DNA from: Nitrososphaerota archaeon
Lineage (GTDB): Archaea; Thermoproteota; Nitrososphaeria; Nitrososphaerales; Nitrosopumilaceae
Direction of reading: 5' to 3'
NCBI GenBank assembly: GCA_021325595.1
Contig: JAJPGX010000015.1
Location: forward strand, 20,824 to 52,823
Length of the DNA: 32,000 nucleotides
Shown here piece by piece: positions 5,355 through 30,045 of the stretch. How positions within the stretch are numbered: position 1 is the first letter of the stretch; every line of letters starts with the position of its first letter. The notes beneath the pieces are model-generated. The model did no database searches. It worked only from the letters and a program-made list of their open reading frames with translations, and was not told the origin of the DNA. The position numbers and the translations under genes are program-made.

Positions 5355-7010
5355 CTAGTCAAATATTAATCCAGTGAGGTTTAATTCAAACCCTGCAATT
5401 GGAATTCTTAGTTTGAAGTTCTCAATTACCTCAGGATTGATCTCTCCTACTATCCCTGCCTGTTTTCCATTAACAACTACGCTTGCAATCCTCCCATCAG
5501 CAAATATGGAATCTTTACTTGCAATTGTTTTACATTCTAGATTAAACCCAGTTTTAAGAAGAGATTGTAGAACTGATTTAATCTCAGTAAATCCAGCACC
5601 ATTATGAGCACTTACACAAGAGAGATGAATTTCTTCTTTAAGTGGCAGATCTTTTTCGTAAACAGTGCCTATTTCGAAGATTCGTTGAGGGTATGATTCG
5701 TGTATATTTCTTGATAATACATCCATCAAACCAGAAAGTAATATATCTCGTAGTATAGCATGTTCTTGGCTTTTTGAGTCCAATACGGAAATCATTTTAG
5801 AATAGTCTCTTCCAGTTTTTTCGTATAAGATCTCTTTGCTGATTAATTCGAAATTCATTACTTCAGTGTAGCCAAGACCATTCATAAGAAGCCTTATTGC
5901 TTCTAATTTTTTTGTTACATTGTGTCTTTCACCAACAGAAACTGATTCTGGAATTGTTGGAGTAAGATTTTGTATTCCATAACCAAGTGCAACTTCTTCT
6001 ACTAGATCCATTGAACCAAAGATATCAGTCCTATATCGTGGTATTGTACAAACAATCTTTCTACCTTTCATCTTGGCATCAAGTCTGCTTTTTCTCAATG
6101 ATTTTATGATAACTGAATTTGATAATTCAAGTCCTAATGTCTGGTTAACTATTTCAGATCCTAGCAGTAGATCTCTTGGTTTTAATTTTAGAGTAGAGTT
6201 ATTTGCACCACTTATTCTAACCGAATAGATCTGAAATCCAGCCGTCTGCAAGGTGTTAGCAATTACTGCAAGAATATCTTCTGCGGAATTTTTGTCAGTG
6301 GCAGTAACTTCAACCAGAATATTTTTTGTGGTACTCTTTATCTCAGTAAATTTTGCATTAGTTATCGGTGGCAAAGAGATAGTCTTACCGGTTGAATCCA
6401 TGATTACTGGTACTTTTTGTCCGTGTAGGATATTTCCATATTTTATTCCTGTTTCTGTTTTTTCCAGGATTTCTGTAACAGTCATTTCTACATCAGAATC
6501 AAGAGGAATGAATCTATGATCCGTACCGATGGATTTGTAATATAGTGGAAACTTGATTTTATCAAGATCATGTATGCCAATGGATGCTTTCTTTCTACGT
6601 CTACCTATTCCATTATGAAGATCTTCTTGCATTGTGATGATTTGCCTTATACTTTCGTCATCTAATGTGCCGTTTTTTGCCTCAATTGCAGTAACATATG
6701 GCCGTATTTTTGAGACTGAAGAATCTGCTTTTATCATGTCTTTGCCAACTTTGATGTGTAATTGTTGCATTCCGAGTTTGATTCCCAAAAGACCCTGTAA
6801 TCCTGTAATTATACCATAATCAGTTGAATAGTCAGGTCTGTTTGGACTGTACTCAACGTTGATATGATCAGACGCCTCTTCTTCAATATCTAATCCAATA
6901 AAGGGTAGAGTAGAAGTAATCTTTTCTTTTGATATTTTCTTTCCTAGAATTTTTTGAATTCTATCAAAATACAATGTAACTACTGGCATTTCGGTACGCT
7001 CCTTAACCAA
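5355..7010 (-). CDS. pheT: Phenylalanyl-tRNA synthetase beta subunit (archaeal type)
   Basis: 551 aa. The N-terminus MPVVTLYFDRIQKILG... with the B3/4 and B5-like regions resembles archaeal PheT, and it lies immediately downstream of pheS, overlapping it. The start may be the second Met (6989). Confidence 0.92.
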   Translation of the reverse strand: MVKERTEMPVVTLYFDRIQKILGKKISKEKITSTLPFIGLDIEEEASDHINVEYSPNRPDYSTDYGIITGLQGLLGIKLGMQQLHIKVGKDMIKADSSVSKIRPYVTAIEAKNGTLDDESIRQIITMQEDLHNGIGRRRKKASIGIHDLDKIKFPLYYKSIGTDHRFIPLDSDVEMTVTEILEKTETGIKYGNILHGQKVPVIMDSTGKTISLPPITNAKFTEIKSTTKNILVEVTATDKNSAEDILAVIANTLQTAGFQIYSVRISGANNSTLKLKPRDLLLGSEIVNQTLGLELSNSVIIKSLRKSRLDAKMKGRKIVCTIPRYRTDIFGSMDLVEEVALGYGIQNLTPTIPESVSVGERHNVTKKLEAIRLLMNGLGYTEVMNFELISKEILYEKTGRDYSKMISVLDSKSQEHAILRDILLSGLMDVLSRNIHESYPQRIFEIGTVYEKDLPLKEEIHLSCVSAHNGAGFTEIKSVLQSLLKTGFNLECKTIASKDSIFADGRIASVVVNGKQAGIVGEINPEVIENFKLRIPIAGFELNLTGLIFD

Positions 7011-8407
7011 CCAAATTTATTTTCATAAAGCTCACGAACATCCTCAAGGCCAAATCGTAGCATTGCGATGCGTTCTATTCCCCCACCCCAAGCAAGAACT
7101 GGATTTTTAATTCCAAGCGGTTTTGTGACTTCAGGTCGGAAAATTCCCATTCCAAATAGTTCTACCCATTTTGCAAGTTTATCATTATATATCATTGATT
7201 GCAAAGAGGGTTCGGTGTACGGGAAAAATGTGGGCCAAAACTTGATTTTTTTAATTCCCATTTTGTGATAAAATTCCGTTTGTAGGCCCATTAAGTCTCT
7301 TAGTGTTACTTTTTTTCCTACAACAACCCCTTCAACCTGATGAAATTCTGCAAGATGTTTGTAGCTTACTTTTTCATTTCTGAAAACCTTTCCAATTGAG
7401 AATAGTCTGGCTTCATCATAATCATGGTCTGCAAGAGTCCTGATTGTAATAGCTGTGGTATGTGTTCTTAGAACCATTTTCCTTGCTTCTTCACTTTGCC
7501 ACTGATAATTCCAGCCCTTTTTGTGAGCTTCGGATACTTTTCTTATCTGATCTGGTTTTGCAAATTTCATAGCCTTGGCATTTTCTATGTAAAATGTATC
7601 TTGCATTTCTCGCGCAGGATGATCTTGGGGTGTGAAAAGAGCATCAAAATTCCAAAAGCATGATTGTACGTTATTGCCTATGATCTCTGAAAATCCCAGA
7701 CTGACAAAAATTTCTCTTACTTCATCTATAACATCTTGTAAAGGATGAGATTTTGCGGCAAAAACTACAGGTGCTGGAGCTTCAACATCAATTGCTCTAG
7801 AGTATGGATCAGATACATTTTCAGAAACACTTTTTGCTGATTCTGCTCCTTTTTCAGTAAGAAGTATAGTCATCTGTTTTGATGAAGAAAATGAAAGAAA
7901 GTCAGGTCTTTTTTTTAGTAAATCAATTGCTTCTTTTTCATTTATTTCTTCTACAGATGTTGGTGATGTACTCTTTGCAATTTGTTTAATGACTTTTTCT
8001 TCTGGGGTGGTATCATGATATCCTTTGAGATGGATTCTGTTTTCATGAATTTCTATCCAGTTATTTTTCTTTGCATTTGCTATAGCAGGACTAAAATCAT
8101 TTTTGAATTCATCTTTTACTTCATTCATCTCACAAGAAGCACCGAATTTGGATTTGAGAAAATTTACCAGGTTACGTTCTGGTAGCCCTTTCTCAAACGC
8201 TTCATGTCCTCTTTTTCCTAATATAACAAAATTTTTCTGCGATTCATTAACGTGAACTAGTTCTTTGAATTTTAGCCATTCAATACCTCGTCTTACTTGA
8301 TCTATTGATAACTTTGTTTTTTCTACCAGTTCCTCTACAGTCATGTTTTCTTTCGCAAGTAAAGATTTGAGAATTTGCTGTTCAATTGGATGAAGAACTT
8401 GTGGCAT
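6980..8407 (-). CDS. pheS: Phenylalanyl-tRNA synthetase alpha subunit
   Basis: 475 aa. Class II core motifs are present: HPAREMQDTFY, LRTHTTAITIR, FRNEKVSYKHLAEFHQVEG, and GMGIFRPEV...AWGGGIERIAM. Confidence 0.93.
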   Translation of the reverse strand: MPQVLHPIEQQILKSLLAKENMTVEELVEKTKLSIDQVRRGIEWLKFKELVHVNESQKNFVILGKRGHEAFEKGLPERNLVNFLKSKFGASCEMNEVKDEFKNDFSPAIANAKKNNWIEIHENRIHLKGYHDTTPEEKVIKQIAKSTSPTSVEEINEKEAIDLLKKRPDFLSFSSSKQMTILLTEKGAESAKSVSENVSDPYSRAIDVEAPAPVVFAAKSHPLQDVIDEVREIFVSLGFSEIIGNNVQSCFWNFDALFTPQDHPAREMQDTFYIENAKAMKFAKPDQIRKVSEAHKKGWNYQWQSEEARKMVLRTHTTAITIRTLADHDYDEARLFSIGKVFRNEKVSYKHLAEFHQVEGVVVGKKVTLRDLMGLQTEFYHKMGIKKIKFWPTFFPYTEPSLQSMIYNDKLAKWVELFGMGIFRPEVTKPLGIKNPVLAWGGGIERIAMLRFGLEDVRELYENKFGWLRSVPKCQ

Positions 8408-15217: not shown

Positions 15218-15305
15218 GGGCCGATAGATCAGCTTGGCTGGAGCGTTCGACTGATAAACTTATTCAGATATCGAAAGGTCGTGGGTTCGAATCCCATTCG
15301 GCCCA
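15218..15305 (+). tRNA. tRNA-Ile(GAU) with a 13-nt intron at the canonical 37/38 position (about 15257-15269)
   Basis: GGGCCGA-TA-GATC-AGCTTGGCTG-GAGC-G-TTCGA-CTGATA[AACTTATTCAGAT]A-TCGAA-AGGTC-GTGGG-TTCGAAT-CCCAT-TCGGCCC-A. The intron TTATTCAG can pair with the CTGATAA anticodon-loop region. Confidence 0.8.
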
Positions 15306-17724: not shown

Positions 17725-19050
17725 TTATTTTGGGATTGAGAAATAAAAGGTAGTACCATTACCCTCTTGGCTTTCAAACCAGATCTTTCCCCCTAAATTT
17801 TCTACAATACCCTTACAAATAACAAGACCAAAACCACTTCCACCATATTTTCTTTTTAGTGAAACATCAACCTGATAGAATTTTTTGAAGATAGAATCTT
17901 TTCTGTTTTCTGATATTCCTATCCCATTATCTTTTACATAAAATAGAACAGATGTACCGTCGTCACTAGCACCTATCTCAATTTTTCCTTCATCTTGTGG
18001 CACAAAGTCAATTGCATTTTGCACCAGATTATAAAAAACCTGTTCAAGTCTTTTTTTATCACTATTTAATGATGAATTTGTAGTTAAATCATTAACAAAC
18101 TCAATTTTTTTTTCAATCATCATTGGAGAACATGAATTAACCACATCGTTTATGAGGTCAGTAACATTGAATTGTTGTCTTTCAAATTCCATTTTATTAT
18201 TATATAATTTTTGGACGTCCACAATGTCATTGATTAGTTGTTCTAGTCGTAACGTATTATCTTGTATCTCACTAATTGCTTCTTTCTGCTTTTTAGTTAA
18301 TTTTGAAGATTCATTTAAGATCTGAACATTCTTTTTAATAGGTTCAAGTGGAATTTGACATTCTTTTGATATCATCATATAGAATCCTTCTTTTGATGAA
18401 TTCATCTTTTGTAGTTCCTCAAGCTGAATTTTTTGTCGCTCATGTTCTTCTAGAACTTTTCGTGCTTTGTAAATATCGGATATATCACGTATAACGCTGT
18501 TACTTCCAATCAATTTACCACTATCATCGTAGATGTTATTTGCGCTTATTATTCCTGGAAATGTTGTCCCGTCCTTTCGTTTAAACCAAATTTCTTTATT
18601 CTCAACATGACCTGCTCGTTTCCACGTATCAAAACTATCACGCATGTCTTTTTGACTTTGTTCTGCTGCATGTTCAAAAAGCGATTTTCCAATTATCTCA
18701 TTTTTTTCATATCCAAAAGTTTTTGCATATTTTTCATTACATGCAAGAATTATACCATCAGTATTTACAGTGCGTTGTGGTACTGGAGAGTTTTCATATA
18801 AATTTCTATATTTGATACTATCGGTTGCTGATATTGATTTTGTACCTTCAACTTGATATGATTTTACTAATAGGGGATTTTTCTGACCTTTACTGCTTGC
18901 CCAGATAATTACTCCCCCTATCACAATTCCTGCAAGACCCAGATAAAATGCATGGTATGCATTTGGAACATTTGGATCAAGACCATAGTCCATTACTGCT
19001 ATTCCCAGTATTATGATTAGAATGCCACTGGTAATACCGAATGTGTTCAT
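17725..19050 (-). CDS. Membrane-bound PAS-domain sensor histidine kinase-like protein with an atypical H-box
   Basis: 441 aa. It has two N-terminal TM helices, a PAS region (NLYENSPVPQRTVNTDGIILACNEKYAKTFGYEKNEIIGKSLFEH...), and N (LVQNAIDF), G1 (VKDNGIGI), F and G2 (GGSGFGLVICKGIV) boxes. The H-box position reads MMISKECQIPLEPI. Confidence 0.85.
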   Translation of the reverse strand: MNTFGITSGILIIILGIAVMDYGLDPNVPNAYHAFYLGLAGIVIGGVIIWASSKGQKNPLLVKSYQVEGTKSISATDSIKYRNLYENSPVPQRTVNTDGIILACNEKYAKTFGYEKNEIIGKSLFEHAAEQSQKDMRDSFDTWKRAGHVENKEIWFKRKDGTTFPGIISANNIYDDSGKLIGSNSVIRDISDIYKARKVLEEHERQKIQLEELQKMNSSKEGFYMMISKECQIPLEPIKKNVQILNESSKLTKKQKEAISEIQDNTLRLEQLINDIVDVQKLYNNKMEFERQQFNVTDLINDVVNSCSPMMIEKKIEFVNDLTTNSSLNSDKKRLEQVFYNLVQNAIDFVPQDEGKIEIGASDDGTSVLFYVKDNGIGISENRKDSIFKKFYQVDVSLKRKYGGSGFGLVICKGIVENLGGKIWFESQEGNGTTFYFSIPK

Positions 19051-19235: not shown

Positions 19236-19775
19236 TCAATATTCTAGGATAGAAATGATAGTATCAAGTAATTCCTGAATTCTTGCCTTTATACCACTTA
19301 TTACTTGAGAAATTTCCATCTTTGTTATCCTTGCTTCATGAATACGTGCATTCTTTGATGCATAATCCATTCCATGATTAGTGATAAAATTATTGAATTT
19401 ATCTAAAAATTGACTTCCAATTATTATTTGGTCCTTATTTTCAAGGTCATTTACTGAATGATATACAGTAGATTTACCAAAAAGATTTACTATATCAGGT
19501 GGTAATGATATTGGATTGCCATAAAGATCATAAAACTTCCAATCAGTTTTTCTATAAGATGGTAAGTTTTGATATAGCTCATCTCTTGTCTTATACTTTA
19601 TAAGATATCCATTAATTTCAAGATCCAACCAAGTGTTCTTATCAGAAATTTGGAGAGTTTTGCATATGTTTTTACAAACTAATAAGATGTCATGAATTGA
19701 TTTTCTTTCATCCAATAGATCCACACTAGTATTTTTAACAATCTGGAGAATTTCCTCTTTTTTATTTGAGCTCAA
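19236..19775 (-). CDS. Hypothetical protein with an AbiTii-like N-terminal pattern
   Basis: 179 aa with a TTG start. ILLVCKNICKTLQISDKNTWLDLEINGY resembles the AbiTii N-terminal signature (..a..la..L....l..W...ELnGY) as I remember it. A PD...ENK string (PPDIV...DLENKD) is also present. The ORF is co-directional with, and 54 nt downstream of, the Dam gene. Confidence 0.55.
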   Translation of the reverse strand: MSSNKKEEILQIVKNTSVDLLDERKSIHDILLVCKNICKTLQISDKNTWLDLEINGYLIKYKTRDELYQNLPSYRKTDWKFYDLYGNPISLPPDIVNLFGKSTVYHSVNDLENKDQIIIGSQFLDKFNNFITNHGMDYASKNARIHEARITKMEISQVISGIKARIQELLDTIISILEY

Positions 19776-19829
19776 ATATACCTAACACTCGATTTATCTT
19801 TGATTTCTACTTTACTTCCATACCTAAAA

Positions 19830-20690
19830 TTAATAATTTTTAATCAGTAATTCGATATGGCCAGTACGCTTTCCTGAAACAGAATTTATAAATCTGTTTG
19901 CATTTATTTCGATTATTCCTTTTGAAAATTCTTGATATAGATGCATAATTTCCTTTGATTTTGAATTAGATAGTAGGATCTTTGCTCCTTTTTTATCAAG
20001 GGATTTGAATTTTCCAAATAATCTTTCTTGGTCTTTATAGTTAAAATCGCTGTCTGTATAGCTTGTAAAATTAGCGGTGTTGCTAACTGGTTGATAGGGA
20101 GGATCAAGATAGACAAAATCACCTTTCTCTACATTCTTTAGTGCGTCTTCGAAATCATGATGCTTGATGGATATATCTTTTGATTGAAGCGTATAATGAA
20201 CAGCTAGAAGGTTTTCTTTATTCACAATGTTTGGATTGACATATTTGCCTAATGGTACATTGAATTTTCCTTTGCTATTTACTCGATAAAGACCATTAAA
20301 ACAAGTTTTATTGAGAAATAACAATCTAGATACCTTATCAACTTGATTTTTTGGATTGGTATCTCTTACCTTATAATAATAGACACTAGGATTTTTGAAG
20401 TAACTTGTAGAATGTGATTCTAGTGATTCGATGAGTTCTTTTATTTTATCTCTAATTGTGATATAGGATAAAACTAGTTCTGAGTTAAGATCTGAAACAA
20501 ACCACTTTACTTGTTTTTTTTGTATCACTAAATGGAAAAATACAGCTCCGCCACCTAGAAATGGTTCAAAATATCTATTGAATTCATCAGGAATATGCTT
20601 TTCAATTATTGGTAGTAGTTGTCTTTTTCCGCCAGCCCATTTGACAAATGGTTTTGGTACAACTGACAATATCTGATATTGTTGCTTCAA
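19830..20690 (-). CDS. dam: DNA adenine methyltransferase (Dam/MethyltransfD12 family, N6-adenine)
   Basis: 286 aa. FVKWAGGKRQLLPII, the SAM-binding FEPFLGGGAVFF and the catalytic VYLDPPY are present. TTG start. Confidence 0.9.
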   Translation of the reverse strand: MKQQYQILSVVPKPFVKWAGGKRQLLPIIEKHIPDEFNRYFEPFLGGGAVFFHLVIQKKQVKWFVSDLNSELVLSYITIRDKIKELIESLESHSTSYFKNPSVYYYKVRDTNPKNQVDKVSRLLFLNKTCFNGLYRVNSKGKFNVPLGKYVNPNIVNKENLLAVHYTLQSKDISIKHHDFEDALKNVEKGDFVYLDPPYQPVSNTANFTSYTDSDFNYKDQERLFGKFKSLDKKGAKILLSNSKSKEIMHLYQEFSKGIIEINANRFINSVSGKRTGHIELLIKNY

Positions 20691-20826: not shown

Positions 20827-21477
20827 TTAATCCCACTTACTCCAAGCTGCCATCCATCTGTAGGTCCATGTTGTTAGTTTGCAACCTAATGCAGTCATTG
20901 TTACTGTCAAAACTGCAGAGGCGCCTGAACCTAATGCGACCGGACTATCGTAGAACTTTCCTACTTGAGGTTCTATCGGAGTCATGTATGGAGGCAATGT
21001 AGTTCTTGGGTATTTGAAAGCCATCTCAAGCGGATCATCAATTGTGATCAAGTTGATCATGTTGAACAATCCCATTGACATTCCACAAAGCACACCGCCC
21101 ATTAGGATCAAAGAGTGTTTGTTCTTCTTTGTTGCCCAATATACCAAGTCCATCAATATTGCAGATGGGATCCACATTGGTACTACGATGAAGCTATATG
21201 GATATCCTAGAGAGAACCACGCACCTTTTGCAATCCATGTATACACTGTCATTATCAGCGCATAGTATGTTGCTGTTCCTGGAACACCAGTGAACGTTAG
21301 GTAATATGCTGCACCGACTGCGAGCATTAATGATTGTGATAAAGTGAATATCACAAACGATGTCCATGCCCAGTCTGTGTAGAATATGTAGTCTCCTGCG
21401 TTGATTGTCAACAAGGTTGAGTTGACTGCGACCACTACTATAAACAAGTAGTGAGTACATCGTCTTAGCCAGACCAT
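20827..21477 (-). CDS. amoA: Ammonia monooxygenase subunit A (archaeal)
   Basis: 216 aa. MVWLRRCTHYLFIVVVAVNSTLLTINAGDYIFYTDWAWTSF...TWTYRWMAAWSKWD is nearly identical in long stretches to Nitrosopumilus-type AmoA as I remember it. Confidence 0.98.
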   Translation of the reverse strand: MVWLRRCTHYLFIVVVAVNSTLLTINAGDYIFYTDWAWTSFVIFTLSQSLMLAVGAAYYLTFTGVPGTATYYALIMTVYTWIAKGAWFSLGYPYSFIVVPMWIPSAILMDLVYWATKKNKHSLILMGGVLCGMSMGLFNMINLITIDDPLEMAFKYPRTTLPPYMTPIEPQVGKFYDSPVALGSGASAVLTVTMTALGCKLTTWTYRWMAAWSKWD

Positions 21478-22062: not shown

Positions 22063-22626
22063 CTATGGGATTGATCTACTGTACAATTTGCCTTCTAGAG
22101 CCATCTTGTACATTTCTGCAACGTATGGATTCTCACCTGGTGTTTCTGCTCCAAGTTCGACAAGTCGTGCATATACTCTTACTACATAGGCAAGTGCACC
22201 CATGAAAGCAACGACGACACCCATGTTAAACATCCAGTGGTTTGGAACTGCGAAGATCTCCTCTACATACCAAAAGTGCCACATTTCATTGACACCAATT
22301 GTGAACATGGTTGCTAGATAACCAAGGATGGTCATCTTAAGACCGGTGTTCATTGAATTGTTTGGACCTCTCAGAATTGGTACCTTTCTGTCATAGATAG
22401 CAACTGAAGCCCAACCTAATGGGAGTGCTATAAAGTGACTGTAAAGCCACCAGTGTGCTGGTGTGAAGGCACTATCTCTGATTGATGTTTGGTGTAGTGA
22501 TCCATCTACGAAGTTATCGACCTCTACTGATGCAGCGATTGATCCCAATGCGATGATGATTAGCCAGATCTTTTTCAATCTCTGGATCTCAACTTCTTTT
22601 GGAATAAGTGCCGGCATTTGTGCCAT
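22063..22626 (-). CDS. amoC: Ammonia monooxygenase subunit C (archaeal)
   Basis: 187 aa. MAQMPALIPKEVEIQRLKKIW...SLHQTSIRDSAFTPAHWWLYSHF...EMWHFWYVEE matches archaeal AmoC. Confidence 0.97.
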   Translation of the reverse strand: MAQMPALIPKEVEIQRLKKIWLIIIALGSIAASVEVDNFVDGSLHQTSIRDSAFTPAHWWLYSHFIALPLGWASVAIYDRKVPILRGPNNSMNTGLKMTILGYLATMFTIGVNEMWHFWYVEEIFAVPNHWMFNMGVVVAFMGALAYVVRVYARLVELGAETPGENPYVAEMYKMALEGKLYSRSIP

Positions 22627-22891: not shown

Positions 22892-23458
22892 ATGGTCGAT
22901 AAGAAGTTTATTGTAGCTGCGATAGGTGTAATCGTTGCACTTGGAGCAGTTGGACCATCATTTGCACAAATGTTCCAACAAGCAGAAGCCCACGGTGTTC
23001 AGGCGCAACTTCAGAGTCGTTTCGTTAGGATAGATGATGAGACTTGGTCAAAACAATCTGTTCAGACAGGCGATACACTGACGGTGTCTGGTAAATTCGT
23101 AAGTCTCGTCAACAGAGACTTGAGAGGATGGTACACCGTGTATGGTGACTCTCCAAACGCTGGTAACAGATGGGAGATTGTAGCAAGGGATCCACCTGGT
23201 AACGTAATCGATATACCAGCAAACTCAGTGATTCCATACAAACTAACAATCAGAGCATTAGAACCATCAGTATACCACATGCACACACAGCTTAACGTAG
23301 CAAGCATCGGCCCAGGTCTAGGTCCAGGACAAACAGTCGTGGTAACAGGCAATCCAATTGTAAAGCCAATTCCATATACAAACGTGATGTATCAATCAAT
23401 TGTAATTGGAGTAGGATATGCAATTACTTTTGCAACAAGACCTTGGCAAGTGATTTAA
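22892..23458 (+). CDS. amoB: Ammonia monooxygenase subunit B (archaeal short form)
   Basis: 188 aa. A signal peptide ending AEA is followed by HGVQAQLQSRF, so a mature N-terminal His is expected, as at the copper site of the pMMO/AMO family. There is a single cupredoxin-like domain plus a C-terminal TM helix. Confidence 0.97.
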   Translation: MVDKKFIVAAIGVIVALGAVGPSFAQMFQQAEAHGVQAQLQSRFVRIDDETWSKQSVQTGDTLTVSGKFVSLVNRDLRGWYTVYGDSPNAGNRWEIVARDPPGNVIDIPANSVIPYKLTIRALEPSVYHMHTQLNVASIGPGLGPGQTVVVTGNPIVKPIPYTNVMYQSIVIGVGYAITFATRPWQVI

Positions 23459-24530: not shown

Positions 24531-25220
24531 TCAATATTGTATTTTAAAGTCATCAAAATAGGCTTCAGTGTCTGCTTTGGTCCATAATCCCATTTGACCT
24601 GATACGTAATTATGATCATTTGCTCGAATTAGAAGATGATTGTCAAGCGTAGCGGCAATTCCTTGTGATGAAACTATAGCTTTCAGAGAATGCCACTCTC
24701 CAGGCGCAATGGAGATCTGTTTATCGTAGCTACAGATAAGAAATTCCGGTGTTTGCTTGCATAAAGATAATCTGTTTGCCATGGAATCTGCCATTAAAAC
24801 AAAATAATGTTGGTCATCGATAAATCTAACGATCATGCCGACTGATCTTGCTTTTTCACCTGATACGATTTTGAATTTCATCGTTATGTTTGCATTATCG
24901 GTACTAGGTGAGTTAGGAAGTATTTGCAGATGAGTATTAGTAACATTATCAATGATGGGTAATTTTACTAGTACGTTAGGTTTTGATGGTGAGTCCGAAA
25001 CAGTTTGTACTACCCAAGAGGGCGTCTTATCAGTTGACATTGAAGCAAATCCTTGTGGCGATGTTCCGTTTTGATATGAATCAAAGTCCCAAGTTACTGT
25101 ATGCTTGTATGGAAAAGCGATTTGTGTGTTGTAAAATGCTATAATTATCCCTATTACAGTAATACCAGCATAGATAGCTAGACGTTTTTTTCTATTTAGT
25201 CGTGGTTTTTCTGTTGACAA
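24531..25220 (-). CDS. Membrane-anchored protein with a concanavalin-A/LamG-like (DUF1080-like) jelly-roll domain
   Basis: 229 aa with an N-terminal TM helix. The pattern PQGF...WVVQ...VGMIVRFIDDQHYFVL...GEWHSLKAIVSSQGIAATLDNHLL...GQMGLWTKADTEAYFDDFKI follows the LamG/DUF1080 layout as I remember it. Confidence 0.62.
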   Translation of the reverse strand: MSTEKPRLNRKKRLAIYAGITVIGIIIAFYNTQIAFPYKHTVTWDFDSYQNGTSPQGFASMSTDKTPSWVVQTVSDSPSKPNVLVKLPIIDNVTNTHLQILPNSPSTDNANITMKFKIVSGEKARSVGMIVRFIDDQHYFVLMADSMANRLSLCKQTPEFLICSYDKQISIAPGEWHSLKAIVSSQGIAATLDNHLLIRANDHNYVSGQMGLWTKADTEAYFDDFKIQY

Positions 25221-25282
25221 GAATATCTACAGGTCTTGCAATCCATGATCGATATAAAAGTACGATTTTGAAAAAACATTCA

Positions 25283-25483
25283 TTATTTTTTTTCACGTTT
25301 TCGCGGTTTTTGTTTGCTACGCCACTTATCAAATCCCCAACGAGTTGCACTAAAAGCACCAACTGCAAAGAAAAAAAATCCAACCATGATGAAGAGCCAA
25401 CTTTTTACATAAAGTCCAAAGAGAAAACCAATTATTGCACTAACAAATTGTAACACTACAAATACTGCCCATCTATCTACCAT
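25283..25483 (-). CDS. Small membrane protein (two helices, basic tail)
   Basis: 66 aa with an ATG start: MVDRWAVFVVLQFVSAIIGFLFGLYVKSWLFIMVGFFFFAVGAF...KQKPRKREKK. Preferred over the overlapping ORFs 25192..25383 and 25202..25453. Confidence 0.5.
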   Translation of the reverse strand: MVDRWAVFVVLQFVSAIIGFLFGLYVKSWLFIMVGFFFFAVGAFSATRWGFDKWRSKQKPRKREKK

Positions 25484-25551
25484 TCCTAAGTCTCAGATCC
25501 ACATACTATTTACCGTTTCTTAAATTATACAAAATACTAATTTGCTGTCAA

Positions 25552-25580
25552 CATAAAAATGAAAAAGAGAGGGGATTAAA
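25552..25580 (-). terminator. Pyrimidine-rich putative terminator after amt
   Basis: The minus strand after the stop reads TTTAATCCCCTCTCTTTTTCATTTTTATG. It shares CCCCTCTCTTTT(T)CATTTT with the amoB 3' region. Confidence 0.5.
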
Positions 25581-27068
25581 CTACTCTGCAAATTGAGAGT
25601 ATGCTCTTTCGCCTACTTGCGACAAGTCAAGTCCTATTTCTTCTTCTTTTGGTGTAACTCTAACACCACCTGGCCAAATCGCATCTTGTATTCTCCAGAT
25701 AATGTATGTTATACCAAATGACCAAGCTGCACCAAATCCTGCACCTGCAGCATTGATTGCTTCTTGCATTGGATTTCCAAAGAAGAGACCGTCGTGTCCA
25801 AATGGATTGATCCTAGTTTCACTGAATGCACCTGTTAGAAGAGCACCTACAACTCCTCCCATTCCGTGCACACCCCAAGTATCCAAAGCATCATCTATTC
25901 TTGCTCTGTTCTTGATAAGTACACAGTAGAAGCATATTGTTGCACATGCAAATCCTACTATTATTGATGCCCATGTTCCGATGAAACCAGAAGCTGGTGT
26001 AATTGCTACAAGTCCAGCTACCGCACCGTTTGCAGCTCCAATAGCACTAGTTTTTCCTGTATGTGCCCAGCTTAAGAACATCCACCACATTGCTGCAACC
26101 GCAGTTGCGATGTTTGTATTCTGGAATGCTTGTGTTTCAAGGAAACCTGCTGAACCAGCACTTCCTGGGTTGAAACCAAACCAACCAAACCATAGTAGTA
26201 TTGCGCCTAGCATTACAAGCGGAATTGAATGTGGCTCAAATGGTGCTTTACCATATCCTATTCTCCTTCCTAAGAACATCGCAGTCGCTAATCCTGCAAA
26301 TCCTGATGTGATATGAATTACAGTTCCACCCGCAAAGTCTTCCGCACCCATGTTTGCTAACCAACCTAACGCAGTTCCTTGACTTCCAAGGGACCAGTTT
26401 GCATGACCTACAACATCATAGATGAATGTGGTCCAGAGTACAATATGTATTAAGAATGCACTCATCTTCAACCTATCAGCATAACCAGCTATAGCTAGTG
26501 ATGGAGTGATTGCAGCGAACATGAGCTGGAACATCACAAAGGCGATATGAGGAATGGTTACAGCATACACATCAGCCGGTGCTATGTGTGACACGTTGTT
26601 TAGACCTGTCCACTCAAAGGTTCCGATAAATCCAACTGAATCGGCAGATGGACCAAACATAATAGAGTATCCAAAGACCACCCACTGAATACTAACAATT
26701 GCATATGTCAAGAATGCTTGTAGTATAACAGTTAGAGCGTGTTTTCTTCGTGTAAGACCTCCATACAAAAATCCTACACCGCCGGGAGTCATGATCATGA
26801 CGAAGACTGCTGCTGCGTACATGAATGTGGTATCTCCCGTATCAATACATGGACCACTCTTGTTGACGTCTGTCATTACTTGTGTACAATGGATTTCAGA
26901 TACGTCCTTGTCTGCAGGAAGTTTGTTTAGGTCACCAAATTGTGCCTGGGCATCTTGAATTGCTGTAAATCCAGATAACCCTACCAATAATCCCGCTAGT
27001 ACAAAAACTACCGGCCATTTGTGTTTCTTTACTATCTGCAATGGCGTTTGAGAAATTGTTTCCAGCAT
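25581..27068 (-). CDS. amt: Ammonium transporter (Amt/MEP/Rh family)
   Basis: About 495 aa. Typical Amt blocks are present: DFAGGTVIHITSGFAGLA, FGWFGFNPGSAG and DTWGVHGMGGVVGALLTG. The track start at 27080 is a TTG; the ATG at 27068 lies 24 nt downstream of a TATA-like box. Confidence 0.95.
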   Translation of the reverse strand: MLETISQTPLQIVKKHKWPVVFVLAGLLVGLSGFTAIQDAQAQFGDLNKLPADKDVSEIHCTQVMTDVNKSGPCIDTGDTTFMYAAAVFVMIMTPGGVGFLYGGLTRRKHALTVILQAFLTYAIVSIQWVVFGYSIMFGPSADSVGFIGTFEWTGLNNVSHIAPADVYAVTIPHIAFVMFQLMFAAITPSLAIAGYADRLKMSAFLIHIVLWTTFIYDVVGHANWSLGSQGTALGWLANMGAEDFAGGTVIHITSGFAGLATAMFLGRRIGYGKAPFEPHSIPLVMLGAILLWFGWFGFNPGSAGSAGFLETQAFQNTNIATAVAAMWWMFLSWAHTGKTSAIGAANGAVAGLVAITPASGFIGTWASIIVGFACATICFYCVLIKNRARIDDALDTWGVHGMGGVVGALLTGAFSETRINPFGHDGLFFGNPMQEAINAAGAGFGAAWSFGITYIIWRIQDAIWPGGVRVTPKEEEIGLDLSQVGERAYSQFAE

Positions 27069-27088
27069 CTTTTCGTACAAGTGCTTCG

Positions 27089-27116
27089 CATCTATAAAAG
27101 GTATTTTATCCTAAAA
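27089..27116 (-). promoter_or_regulatory. amt promoter core; copy 1 of a perfect 28-nt direct repeat
   Basis: The plus strand reads CATCTATAAAAGGTATTTTATCCTAAAA and the minus strand TTTTAGGATAAAATACCTTTTATAGATG. The TTTATA element sits 24 nt upstream of the amt ATG at 27068. The sequence is identical to 29588-29615. Confidence 0.6.
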
Positions 27117-27122
27117 TTATTT

Positions 27123-27180
27123 TTTTATGATATTATAATAGATCTTTGATCTGTAAACAAAAAATCTCGATATCATAAAA
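27123..27180. repeat. Nested palindromes upstream of amt: an 11-bp perfect inverted repeat flanking AGATC-TTT-GATCT
   Basis: TTTTATGATAT (27123-27133) and ATATCATAAAA (27170-27180) are exact reverse complements. AGATCTTTGATCT lies at 27140-27152. Confidence 0.8.
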
Positions 27181-27232
27181 TTATAAAAAATTCTAAAAAA
27201 AATTATTATACAAGCTAAATGACACCTGATAT

Positions 27233-27394
27233 ATGGCAGAAGCAGGAATAAACATTTTCATTGCAACAGGCGTAGCTCTAGCAATGACAGTTGCAATTTA
27301 TTTTGGAGAAAGAGCCCATAGAAAGAACTTAGAAAAGAAAGGAAAGACATGGGGTACCTATGGCATGAAGTACGAAGGCCATCACAACCTCTAG
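27233..27394 (+). CDS. Possible small membrane protein (53 aa), divergent from amt
   Basis: Below the track cutoff. My translation is MAEAGINIFIATGVALAMTVAIYFGERAHRKNLEKKGKTWGTYGMKYEGHHNL, one TM helix with a basic tail, and the region is richer in GC than the surrounding spacer. Confidence 0.45.
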   Translation: MAEAGINIFIATGVALAMTVAIYFGERAHRKNLEKKGKTWGTYGMKYEGHHNL

Positions 27395-27473
27395 AAGAAA
27401 AATTTCCTTAACCATCTTTTTGTAATAACAGCATCAGATAGATTGATTTAATCACTTGCGGCGAATTATATCA

Positions 27474-27965
27474 ATGAGAAAGAATTTAGAAGAAGGAGAA
27501 CATATTGTGGCTTCATTGCCTCAGGTCTGGGGAATTGCATTAGGATTTAGAGGCTTTTTTCACAAAAATAAAGAAGGAGTTTTAGCGTTAACAGACAGGA
27601 ATTTAATTTTCACACCTCGTTTCTTGTATATTACTCCAAAAGAAAAAGGAAAATATTTTGAAGACGATAAAGCAAAAATTGCTAAAATTTCCAATTACAC
27701 AGAAGATGATCTAGATGAAGATATCTCTGAGAATTCAAAATCATCTTGGGTGATACCCCTTGAATCAATAAGAGATGTGGAAATAACAATATCACGTAAA
27801 GTAAGTTTTCTAAGGGTAACCTATACAGAAGATGGAAAAACAAGGAAATGTGATTTTGGAATTGCTAAAACCGTTGCAAGTTATCCTCAACGTCAACCAC
27901 TAGTATTCAAAAATTTAGATTGGACGTTATGGCTTGGTTTAATCAAATCAATGATAAAACTATAA
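27474..27965 (+). CDS. Hypothetical protein (possibly PH/GRAM-like fold)
   Basis: The track ORF starts at a TTG (27456); the ATG at 27474 gives MRKNLEEGEHIV... GVLALTDRNLIFTP is reminiscent of bacterial PH-like domains. This is weak. Confidence 0.55.
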   Translation: MRKNLEEGEHIVASLPQVWGIALGFRGFFHKNKEGVLALTDRNLIFTPRFLYITPKEKGKYFEDDKAKIAKISNYTEDDLDEDISENSKSSWVIPLESIRDVEITISRKVSFLRVTYTEDGKTRKCDFGIAKTVASYPQRQPLVFKNLDWTLWLGLIKSMIKL

Positions 27966-27976
27966 ATATTTAAAAA

Positions 27977-28456
27977 TCACGGATTTTGCCGAGTATTTTG
28001 TTGTAATATTTTTCTAGCTTGTGATGAAATAATATCGTCATCATGATCTTGACCTTGTAGAAATTTTACATCAGTTATCTTTTTTTTATACTTGAATATT
28101 TCCAATTCATATTTACCATCTTTCTTTGGTTGGTACAATGCTAGCTTTAGTAATGCAGATCCATTGTATTCCTCTTTAAATTGTAAATAGTGTTCAGAAA
28201 TTTTTAGAGATTTTAAAAAAACCCAGGTTGTCATTAATATACGCGATGGGCTATACAAAACAAGTTCATAGTTAGGATCTTCTTCAAAAAACCTTATTTT
28301 TATTTCATCATCTGGCCAATATTTGATAATTTCGCTCCATGTGTTTACAAGTTTTTTTCGATCATCAAATAAGAGATAGACGGTTGGGCGAACATCATAT
28401 ACATGGTAACCCATACCTATAAAATCATGATACCACTCAATCTTAGATTCAGACAT
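27977..28456 (-). CDS. Hypothetical protein
   Basis: 159 aa with an ATG start. No recognisable family. About 31% GC by hand count of 28101-28200. Confidence 0.55.
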   Translation of the reverse strand: MSESKIEWYHDFIGMGYHVYDVRPTVYLLFDDRKKLVNTWSEIIKYWPDDEIKIRFFEEDPNYELVLYSPSRILMTTWVFLKSLKISEHYLQFKEEYNGSALLKLALYQPKKDGKYELEIFKYKKKITDVKFLQGQDHDDDIISSQARKILQQNTRQNP

Positions 28457-28530
28457 TCAATTCCACATTGCATGTATTATATTTAATAATTAAACTTGGA
28501 AAAACACCACAATTAAGATATTAATGCCCA

Positions 28531-28764
28531 ATGGTTTTTCAAGTTGTGTCAAATCGAAAACGAATAGAAGAGATAATGAAAATGAGTAAAGAGGAACTAT
28601 ATCAATATCTACGAAGAGAGGACAACACCATTCAAGAATCAGACAAAATAGAGATGAAACCATTTGAACATGGAATTAAAATATTTTATTTCCATAAAGA
28701 TTCAGAAAAACCATTCAAAACAAGAGTATATCTGAATCAGGATGAGAGTGAATCATTAAAGTAA
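28531..28764 (+). CDS. Hypothetical small protein
   Basis: 77 aa, ATG start, charged composition, divergent from 27977..28456. Confidence 0.45.
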   Translation: MVFQVVSNRKRIEEIMKMSKEELYQYLRREDNTIQESDKIEMKPFEHGIKIFYFHKDSEKPFKTRVYLNQDESESLK

Positions 28765-28813
28765 ATACAACTGATGTTAACAAAATAGAAATTAAAATTA
28801 AAAAAGTGTGTGG

Positions 28814-29590
28814 TTATAGCAAGGATGTTTTTGGTTTTAGTTCACGCCACTTGCCACGAGCCCAGAAACCCCACTTTTGTTTGTCTTCGTTTGGATAGTA
28901 ACATTTTTCGTTGTGAGGGCAACTCATACATCTTTCAGATGGTTCAATGGCTGGTGCAATATTGTTTTTCAACAGTGTATTGAGAATTTTTGCTCTTCGT
29001 TTTGTTTCGTGTAGTAGCTTTTCACTTTTTGGAACAATGAATTCCATCTCATTTCCTTCTTTGTCAAAGTAAATGATCACACCTTCGGGTTTGTCAAACA
29101 TGTATAGATATGAATTCAGTTGTATGAAATGCTCTGGATGTGGCATTTCTGGCAATGTTTCTGAACTTCTAAAGAGCATCACTGTTTCGTCTTCAACTCT
29201 GTCAGCTCTACCGACAATTTTTACGTTAGAGCCTGCATCGAGTTGACCTTCTAATGGTTTTTCCATTATACTCAGCGCACTCTTTTCCATTATCTTTGAC
29301 ACCATCTGTTTGTGTGTACTTTCTGATGGATCCTTACGGTCAAGGTATGCGTTCCTTAGACAACCGCTTAGCTCGTCTACAGAGATTTTTCCCTCGTCAG
29401 CTATTGTAGGATTAATTGCAGCAAAAACTTGCTCAATCACATCATACACATCTACCCTAGCTGGGGTATCAGTTGCTGAACGATAGTTTTCAATTCCTTC
29501 CTTAATTTTTTCTTGAACTTTTCCAACAATCTTTGCTTTTTTGTAGCTAGCTTTGGATTCTGTCATTCTTTTGAAAAGGGAGTTTTTCAT
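28814..29590 (-). CDS. Cas4/RecB-like PD-(D/E)xK-fold protein with a four-Cys (Fe-S type) pattern; stand-alone
   Basis: The N-terminal Cys context is ELSGCLRNAYL. GRADRV is motif II-like, HFIQLNSYLYM is QhxxY-like, and CMSCPHNEKC is the C-terminal C-x2-C-x5-C. The likely start is the internal ATG at 29566 (MTESKASYKK), 25 nt downstream of the repeated TATA-like box. Confidence 0.68.
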   Translation of the reverse strand: MKNSLFKRMTESKASYKKAKIVGKVQEKIKEGIENYRSATDTPARVDVYDVIEQVFAAINPTIADEGKISVDELSGCLRNAYLDRKDPSESTHKQMVSKIMEKSALSIMEKPLEGQLDAGSNVKIVGRADRVEDETVMLFRSSETLPEMPHPEHFIQLNSYLYMFDKPEGVIIYFDKEGNEMEFIVPKSEKLLHETKRRAKILNTLLKNNIAPAIEPSERCMSCPHNEKCYYPNEDKQKWGFWARGKWRELKPKTSLL

Positions 29591-29615
29591 CTATAAAAGG
29601 TATTTTATCCTAAAA
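29588..29615 (-). promoter_or_regulatory. Copy 2 of the perfect 28-nt direct repeat (an amt-type promoter core) at the 5' end of the Cas4-like gene
   Basis: The plus strand CATCTATAAAAGGTATTTTATCCTAAAA is identical to 27089-27116. In both copies, 9 diverged nt are followed by a shared TTTATGATA. Confidence 0.6.
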
Positions 29616-29691
29616 AAAAGAATTTATGATAATATTTCTTATTTTATAATATTTTAAACAATGATTTTAATAAAAGCATTTCATAGGTGCA

Positions 29692-30045
29692 ATGGATCCA
29701 ACTATGAAAAAAATAGAAGCAGTAATCCCAGAAGAAAGATTGGAGAACGTGTTTGAAGCATTGTTAGACTCTGGTGCCTCAGGCTTCAGTTATTTTACTG
29801 TAAAAGGTAGAGGAAGCAGGGCAAGACCAGTTGTTTCATCCGGAAGGGGCGGTCGATTTGAATCGGCATATAATGTCAACTCTTGCATCATGGTTGTTGT
29901 AGCAGACAACATGGTAAACAAGGTGGTTGATACGATAACCTCTCATGCAAGTACCGGAATGGCAGGTGAAGGTAAGATATTCGTCTACAATGTAGAAGAT
30001 GCTATAGATGTAGGAACAAAGAAACACGGCGACGCTTCAATTTAA
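29692..30045 (+). CDS. PII-family nitrogen regulatory protein (GlnB/GlnK-like) with a divergent T-loop
   Basis: MKKIEAVIPEERLENVFEAL... and the B-loop-like TGMAGEGKIFVYNVEDAIDV fit PII. The probable start is the ATG at 29704. The T-loop region reads GRGSRARPVVSSGRGGRFESAYNV. Confidence 0.88.
   Translation: MDPTMKKIEAVIPEERLENVFEALLDSGASGFSYFTVKGRGSRARPVVSSGRGGRFESAYNVNSCIMVVVADNMVNKVVDTITSHASTGMAGEGKIFVYNVEDAIDVGTKKHGDASI

Follow-up and report, generated by a model that had tools for sequence, protein, structure and literature searches.

A candidate promoter module upstream of both amt2 and a Cas4-like gene in Nitrosotalea-like ammonia-oxidizing archaea

In archaea, factors bound just upstream of the B recognition element (BRE) usually assist the recruitment of TFB and TBP; repressors usually overlap the TATA box or the transcription start site. 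Among the described elements, the upstream activating sites of Ptr2 in Methanocaldococcus and the Thermococcales glycolytic motif (TGM, TATCAC-N5-GTGATA) of TrmBL1/Tgr come close to the one presented here, as does the NrpR operator of methanogens (GGAA-N6-TTCC), which overlaps or follows the TATA box or start site and represses. Here we describe a 28-nt sequence, CATCTATAAAAGGTATTTTATCCTAAAA, that occurs twice in a 32,000-nt stretch of DNA (in the following, the window) from a Nitrososphaerota archaeon (assembly GCA_021325595.1, contig JAJPGX010000015.1, positions 20,824 to 52,823). One copy stands upstream of an ammonium transporter gene, amt, the other upstream of a gene for a Cas4-like protein. 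It is likely, in our judgement, that the two 28-mers represent a single compact promoter module of archaeal type, present in paralogous copies and composed of a dyad and a BRE/TATA core, at which a dimeric factor would co-control both genes.

The module is of a known type, namely an archaeal promoter with an upstream dyad site. Like the Ptr2 sites and the TGM, it has an inverted repeat directly upstream of BRE/TATA, and in those systems this arrangement is repeated across the regulon. The half-site, TATCAT, is one base off the TATCAC of the TGM, but the half-sites are 14 nt apart instead of 5, and the element belongs to another phylum and to ammonium-uptake targets. With the NrpR system it would have its purpose in common, in that one DNA element is shared by nitrogen-acquisition genes near the amt and PII genes; it differs in lying upstream of the BRE. 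Pattern searches ruled out these known archaeal nitrogen and sugar operators: GGAA-N6-TTCC gave 0 matches in the whole window, and the TGM pattern had no match at the two promoters and two chance-level matches elsewhere in the window. A published account describes the pairing of glnK with amtB, with PII beside Amt, in bacteria and archaea (PMC3831643). Here, too, a PII gene lies near the Amt gene, but it stands 2.6 kb off, on the opposite strand and behind five genes, is not co-transcribed with amt, and is divergent from the Cas4-fold gene that bears the amt promoter module.

For ammonia-oxidizing archaea (AOA), ammonia is both fuel and nitrogen source. The window comes from a Nitrosotalea-like AOA, with an Amt protein that falls into one 90% cluster with proteins of Ca. 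Nitrosotalea sinensis and Nitrosotalea sp. Its amt gene is separated from amoB by about 2 kb and from amoA by about 4 kb. Because the amt2 gene of Ca. N. devanaterra (NDEV_1784) is likewise found near amoA (NDEV_1777), we assigned amt to the amt2 type (PMC4836417). In Ca. N. devanaterra, amt2 is reported to encode the putative high-affinity transporter, with transcription exceeding that of amt1 more than 10-fold (PMC4836417); among AOA transporters, Amt2 is the one that is highly transcribed and remains so at low ammonia (PMC4836417, PMC7490402), which makes a dedicated control element for amt2 plausible. Reviews call the regulation of ammonium uptake in AOA unknown or unresolved (PMC10432482, PMC7490402). 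Our literature search found no described AOA transcription factor site, nitrogen operator or nitrogen regulator, and nothing usable on an AOA amt promoter, operator, start-site map or Cas4-like gene expression.

The repeat and the module around it

A sequence-only reading of this DNA had reported a perfect 28-nt direct repeat. Both copies were verified at 27089-27116 and 29588-29615, and these are exactly the two occurrences in the window; a third site was not found there even when up to 3 mismatches were allowed. In 100 dinucleotide-preserving shuffles the 28-mer gave 0 matches. The similarity extends beyond the exact repeat as an ungapped alignment of 69 nt with 75% identity (27068-27136 against 29567-29635). 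One detail had to be corrected: the shared TTTATGATA was said to follow 9 diverged nt, while the actual gap is 7 nt and the 9 nt stand before TATGATA.

Read on the minus strand, either copy gives TTTTAGGATAAAATACC-TTTTATA-G and forms the core of a module of about 42 nt, TATCAT-N14-AGGATA-AAATACC-TTTTATA. Its upstream part is a dyad. The extended arms, ATAATATCATAAAA and TTTTAGGATAAAAT, match as a palindrome at 11 of 14 positions with a free 6-nt centre between them; in arm form, the dyad reads TATCATAAAA-N6-TTTTAGGATA and is placed at about -65 to -40. The centre-to-centre spacing of the half-sites is fixed at 20 bp, and the central 6-8 nt vary among relatives. In the amt copy of one relative (L087), a natural variant (ATGATA) makes the core half-sites perfectly symmetric. 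The downstream part consists of AAATACC at the BRE position and the TATA box TTTTATA. The most invariant stretch, GATAAAATACCTTTTATAGA, abuts and includes BRE/TATA, and the left box, about 33 nt upstream of the TATA box, is conserved as strongly as the TATA box itself.

The spacing proposed earlier for the TATA-like box held as well: from the end of TTTTATA it is 24 nt to the amt ATG (27068) and 25 nt to that of the Cas4-like gene (29566). The TATA box is centred at about -28 from the A of the ATG, within the 26-28 nt typical of archaeal promoters of leaderless mRNAs. No GGAGG-like (Shine-Dalgarno) sequence is visible before either the amt or the Cas4-like ATG. Overall, the geometry fits a canonical archaeal promoter that would produce leaderless or nearly leaderless mRNAs from the predicted start sites. 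The segments between TATA box and ATG (27069-27092 and 29567-29591, minus strand) are conserved within each gene class across lineages and have class-specific ends, ...ATCTCTACGAAAAG-ATG at amt and ...TTTTCAAAAGA-ATG at the Cas4-like gene. With leaderless mRNAs these segments would remain untranscribed, and their conservation may point to a proximal element of the promoter or to a second site for a protein.

The box also occurs a third time, facing the 53-aa gene that is divergent from amt2. This copy lies 32 nt upstream of the TATA-like TTATTATA of that gene (27203-27210) and is kept as ATGATAYC in every amt-upstream sequence of the relatives.

Conservation of the module and history of the locus

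Nitrosotalea-like lineages (L081, L083, L084-87 and L088) were picked through protein identity only, their Cas4-like proteins being 97-71% identical to that of the window. In all of them, both promoters read TATCAT-N14-AGGATA-AAATACC-TTTTATAGA. Alignments of the spacers from five lineages showed 35 of 42 invariant module columns at the Cas4-like gene and 36 of 42 at amt, with all of the variable columns located in the central spacer of the dyad. The rest of the same spacers is invariant at only 58 of 96 and 51 of 136 columns (38-60%). The module is nearly invariant at both genes while the proteins of these lineages differ by 12-29%.

To this we can add a metagenome scan of 241 million records for exact matches to the 23-nt core. 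It returned 61 matches on 58 contigs, of which 17 are situated before amt and 43 before the Cas4-like gene; the remaining one is a stray match on an unrelated AT-rich contig. All 60 promoter matches have the ATG 24-25 nt downstream of the TATA box. The identity of the core is forced by the scan pattern, and the unbiased read-outs are therefore the left half-site and a second copy on the same contig. Firstly, TATCAT, which lies outside the search pattern, was found at the fixed distance in about 95 instances, TATCAC being the sole variant. Secondly, a second copy that was not needed for finding the contig is present in 18 contigs, and it differs by at most 1 nt in 23. Its changes are AAATACC to AAATGCC in 11 cases, AGGATA to AAGATA in 3 and AGGATA to GGGATA in 1. 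These substitutions are confined to one copy; likewise, each copy keeps its own dyad centre and its own TATA-to-ATG segment from lineage to lineage. Because the changes are copy-specific, the conservation is attributed to selection on each copy and not to ongoing gene conversion.

The module appears to be exclusive to these genes within the material covered. No other dyad sites scoring at least 12 bits with the position weight matrix (PWM) were detected in the window, the amoA/B/C promoters included, or in the loci of the relatives (about 14-21 kb). The box was not found in amt1-type paralogues among the matches listed (L001-L003, L035), and the metagenome scan gave no third target gene. The sequence-only reading had proposed a search for the 28-mer in this and related genomes; in the metagenome scan, 60 of the 61 core matches turned out to stand at these two genes. 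A generic strong promoter was ruled out, as the amoA/B/C promoters and the other spacers of the window and the loci are without the module.

Outside the Nitrosotalea-like clade, several AOA lineages carry versions of their own at the same two genes. In L152, whose Cas4-like protein is 73% identical, amt stands back to back with the Cas4-like gene in divergent orientation and each of them carries its own version, TACCAT-N14-ATGATA-AAATAGT-ATTTATAG. The two copies form an 88-nt inverted repeat of 99% identity (6662-6749 and 6933-7020) that includes the first 20 or so coding nucleotides of both genes; both proteins begin with MSSG. The repeat demonstrates that a promoter was copied between amt and the Cas4-like gene more than once, or recently. 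Taken together with the 69-nt similarity in the window, it also indicates that the two promoters are probably copies of one another. In L158, both genes carry ACTATCATAAAAAA-N8-N6-AAAAxGx-TTTTATA; as the genes behind the box have no divergent neighbour here, the box is more than the TATA box of a promoter facing the other way. Related versions are present in L092 and L153. L155 (GC 52%) has a single TATCATAAAAAAA box in the 181-nt spacer of its divergent amt/Cas4-like pair.

Some further repeats were seen in these lineages. Beside the single box of L155, the amt/Cas4-like spacer (6819-7000) contains a perfect 9-bp palindrome, ATTGGAGTT-N7-AACTCCAAT. In L092, a 49-nt tandem duplication (5482-5580, 90% identity) upstream of amt duplicates the AACATAAAAAAT box, and a perfect 21-nt tandem repeat (7363-7404) lies between amt and the next gene.

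By inspection, the gene order of the window is that of L152 and L155 with the block of Cas4-like, 77-aa, 159-aa, 163-aa and 53-aa genes inverted. The ancestor would have had a divergent amt/Cas4-like pair with an own promoter copy for each gene, as in L152. One breakpoint would separate the two promoter copies and the other would part the 53-aa gene from the PII gene; such an inversion would turn inverted-repeat promoters into direct repeats. The rearrangement that fits is an inversion of the block and not an insertion. Of the eight lineages sampled outside the clade, five (L090, L152, L154, L155 and L157) have amt and the Cas4-like gene in divergent orientation, from which we infer that the Nitrosotalea-type order is derived.

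The Cas4-like protein and its neighbours

The positions of the module parts and of the surrounding genes are compiled in Table 1. The order along the window is amoA (20827-21477), amoC (22063-22626), amoB (22892-23458), two open reading frames (ORFs) of 229 aa and 66 aa, amt, the block between the repeat copies, and PII. All five ORFs claimed for this block by the sequence-only reading were found.

Table 1. Positions of the module parts and of the genes at the amt2 locus, in window coordinates
Feature	Position	Strand	Remarks
28-mer copy 1, core of the candidate amt2 promoter module	27089..27116	-	exact match, 0 in shuffles
28-mer copy 2, core of the candidate promoter module of the Cas4-like gene	29588..29615	-	exact match
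Dyad upstream of amt2, TATCAT-N14-AGGATA	27107..27132	-	PWM score 44.4 bits
Dyad upstream of the Cas4-like gene, TATCAT-N14-AGGATA	29606..29631	-	PWM score 29.8 bits
AAATACC (BRE position) and TTTTATA of amt2	27093..27106	-	TATA 27099..27093, ends 24 nt before ATG
AAATACC and TTTTATA of the Cas4-like gene	29592..29605	-	TATA 29598..29592, 25 nt before ATG 29566
Third box copy ATATCATAAAA (TATCATAAAA at 27171)	27170..27180	+	faces the 53-aa gene
amt2-type ammonium transporter, 495 aa, ATG 27068	25581..27068	-	Pfam Ammonium_transp E = 2e-108
Cas4-fold 4-Cys protein, 250 aa	28814..29566	-	ExK Glu replaced by hydrophobic residue
53-aa membrane ORF, divergent from amt2, conserved across AOA	27233..27394	+	
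163-aa conserved ORF	27474..27965	+	no family match
159-aa conserved ORF	27977..28456	-	
77-aa conserved ORF	28531..28764	+	
PII (GlnK/GlnB-type), 113 aa	29704..30045	+	Pfam P-II E = 3e-20; divergent from the Cas4-like gene

The Cas4-like protein matches SSO0001 (PDB 4IC1) best, both by profile comparison (E = 2e-4) and by Foldseek (E = 1e-8). The AlphaFold model is poor outside residues 100-200 (mean predicted local distance difference test score, pLDDT, of 55) and was used for fold assignment only. As in Cas4, there are four cysteines, namely C69, C213, C216 and C222, which are invariant and correspond to an N-terminal Cys plus C-x2-C-x5-C, and the first catalytic Asp (D/E122) and a QxxxY-like helix are kept. 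In contrast to Cas4, the D...ExK triad is incomplete: upon alignment to 4IC1, position 131 is L, I, V, M or A in 26 of 26 homologues, so the ExK Glu is gone, and the position of the ExK Lys (133) holds R or K, mostly Arg. The nearest relatives of about 210 aa are also without ExK; the distant P0189, P0190, P0195 and P0200 retain it. None of the curated cut-offs was reached (Pfam Cas_Cas4 18.7 against 22.7, PDDEXK_1 20 against 22, TIGR00372 29.9 against 65). The family is single and tight, with one 50% cluster at 335 bits and the next match at 179 bits. Conserved extra segments at the N-terminus (about 60 aa) and at the C-terminus (basic, WGFWARGKWRELKPK) were observed in the homologues P0001-P0115 and also set the protein apart from Cas4, as do its fixed place beside amt2 and the missing CRISPR/cas context. 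No cas genes were found among the window ORFs scanned (mainly those of at least 110 aa and those around amt) or in the flanks of the relatives, and no CRISPR-like repeat family was found in the window. Altogether, these comparisons suggest that the protein is probably a nuclease-inactive Cas4-fold iron-sulfur protein tied to amt2.

Concerning its start, an upstream ATG at 29590, inside 'TATAGATG' in the promoter, is not conserved, the relatives reading TATAGAAC and TATAGACC; because of this, and because the homologues have 241-252 aa, the start was set to 29566. PII has its own conserved promoter block at about 29660-29700, and its start is most likely 29704, as in the relatives. Public annotations give a 258-aa Cas4-like protein (ATG 29590) and a 117-aa PII (ATG 29692). 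Both of these ATGs are unconserved in relatives, and one of them falls within the TATA region; the proteins made are likely to be the 250-aa and 113-aa forms.

The neighbourhood of these genes is widely kept. The Cas4-like protein has homologues across Nitrososphaerota (115 clusters, 64-97% identity). The arrangement PII<>Cas4-like, ~75 aa, ~157 aa, ~161 aa, ~54 aa<>Amt recurs in identical order at 97, 83, 79 and 72% Cas4-like identity. By tblastn, the set of p229, p66, Amt, 53-aa, 163-aa, 159-aa, 77-aa, Cas4-like and usually PII genes is clustered in six of seven further AOA lineages (L090, L092, L152, L154, L155 and L157), where only the gene order differs and the local GC is 38-52%. The exception is L153, with no Amt within 7 kb; L158 has a similar gene-size layout. 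The nine-gene neighbourhood (24531-30045) is thus kept in most AOA lineages sampled despite internal inversions, and most of its members are without known function: p229 has a weak 3keto-disac_hyd/DUF1080 match, and the 163-aa ORF, labelled PH-like in the sequence-only reading, has no significant match in Pfam, NCBIfam, PHROGs or PADLOC. For the block proteins as a whole, the same four collections gave Cas4 similarity and no other phage or defence match.

Some observations were made farther away in the window. Between a PAS histidine kinase gene (17725-19050) and amoA, the minus strand (19236-20690) encodes an AbiTii-family ORF (179 aa) and a D12-class N6-adenine DNA methyltransferase (286 aa), which PADLOC lists as a type II or orphan methyltransferase. 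With a local GC of 29-33%, this pair may be a small defence islet inserted beside the amo cluster. Rfam detected only tRNAs among known RNA families in the window, including a third tRNA at 15218-15305 (plus strand, 88 nt, 49.5 bits) that was missed by ARAGORN and is probably an intron-containing archaeal tRNA.

Explanations for the shared module and what it would mean

According to the explanation we favour, each copy of the module would start a leaderless mRNA, one for the putative high-affinity transporter Amt2 and one for the Cas4-fold iron-sulfur protein. A dimeric transcription factor would bind the dyad just upstream of BRE/TATA, and its binding at both copies would place amt2 and the Cas4-like gene under one control. 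The same control would extend to the 53-aa gene with its separate copy of the box, and perhaps to the divergent PII gene. The signal would presumably be nitrogen or ammonium status.

Several points weigh against this explanation. Firstly, L090, L154 and L157 keep a recognisable module at amt only; as their Cas4-like promoter lacks it, the coupling is not universal in AOA. Secondly, the right half-site is unconserved in L157, L092 and L158, where what remains is the left box, the spacing and the A-rich BRE/TATA. With this half-site lost in distant lineages, the element may consist of one box and a core promoter and not be a true dyad. Thirdly, no transcription factor gene consistently linked to the locus was found. 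Moreover, the analysis covers a 32-kb stretch of the source genome and no more than 10 kb of flank in the relatives, and degenerate sites elsewhere would escape an exact-match metagenome scan. Finally, the operator shared by both genes, as put forward in the sequence-only reading, stands as far as a near-invariant and exclusive module at both genes is concerned; the co-regulation part is deduced from sequence comparison.

The main rival is a shared promoter class, in which an extended BRE/TATA and an upstream A-tract element would be read by a specific TFB/TBP paralogue with no classical factor. AOA encode many TFB paralogues. The location of GATAAAATACCTTTTATAGA at BRE/TATA speaks for this possibility, as does the behaviour of the distant lineages, in which the A-rich BRE/TATA and the upstream box are kept and the right half-site drifts. 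However, the left box lies beyond the usual TFB/TBP footprint and is equally conserved. A palindrome of 11 in 14 positions with fixed 20-bp spacing and free centre is the signature of a dimeric DNA-binding protein, and the L087 variant completes this palindrome. In addition, the strong amoA/B/C promoters in the window do without the element. On balance, we regard a specialised core promoter as rather unlikely.

Very improbable, in our estimation, is concerted evolution without function, whereby gene conversion between two neutral duplicates would keep them identical. That copying or conversion happens is evident from L152, where the identity even includes the first codons. Against it, throughout the Nitrosotalea-like clade the flanks are copy-specific along with the dyad centre and the TATA-to-ATG segment, and single substitutions occur in one copy only. 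Conversion homogenises within a genome, which leaves the same sequence across lineages with 71-97% identical proteins unexplained.

The weakest explanation, to which we give hardly any credit, is a mobile or horizontally acquired insert of 2.5 kb in a divergent amt/PII pair with the 28-mers as att sites or target-site duplication: direct repeats do flank the block, and by arithmetic the loss of one copy plus the block would put amt and PII about 120 nt apart, but the five genes stand in unchanged order with both repeat copies in every clade relative, their homologues cluster with amt2 in L090, L092, L152, L154, L155 and L157 too, no integrase, transposase or phage-like protein was identified in the block (Pfam, NCBIfam, PHROGs, PADLOC), the nearest tRNA is more than 9 kb away, and no empty-site relative was seen. 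This result disposes of the insertion or att scar in the sequence-only reading, which had suggested comparing amt-PII synteny; the block is present in all Nitrosotalea-like relatives examined, with both repeats kept. Its description of the block as AT-rich was not borne out either, 32.9% GC against 35.4% for the window being no anomaly, and the GC of amt is 43.4% and not about 48%; it is amt that, like amoA/B/C, is the GC-rich outlier. The integrated elements of Thaumarchaeota, flanked by att sites or direct repeats, are similar in that here, too, two identical short direct repeats enclose some kilobases of small ORFs, including a Cas4-like one. They differ from this locus, which has no integrase, tRNA target, presence/absence polymorphism or compositional shift, and where the repeats fall on promoters with a conservation of their own.

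Coming back to a module read by a dimeric factor, the element of about 42 nt before the gene of a high-affinity transporter is of practical use, as bait for the regulator and as a motif for regulon prediction in complete genomes. It offers a first concrete handle on the transcriptional control of ammonium uptake in AOA. The shared element also flags the nine-gene neighbourhood (p229, p66, Amt2, 53-aa, 163-aa, 159-aa, 77-aa, Cas4-like and PII), whose uncharacterised proteins probably have to do with the transport or sensing of ammonium. A more speculative thought, which we hold to be doubtful, is that the Cas4-fold iron-sulfur protein is itself part of the control circuit of ammonium uptake, either as the dyad-binding factor or as a redox- or nitric oxide-sensitive partner of PII and Amt2. 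If this were true, it would explain why the Cas4-like gene is found beside amt2 in nearly all AOA lineages sampled and has repeatedly acquired the promoter of amt2; as the dyad-binding factor, the protein would combine autoregulation with control of amt2. The module would then be the first cis-regulatory element of an ammonium-uptake regulon in AOA.

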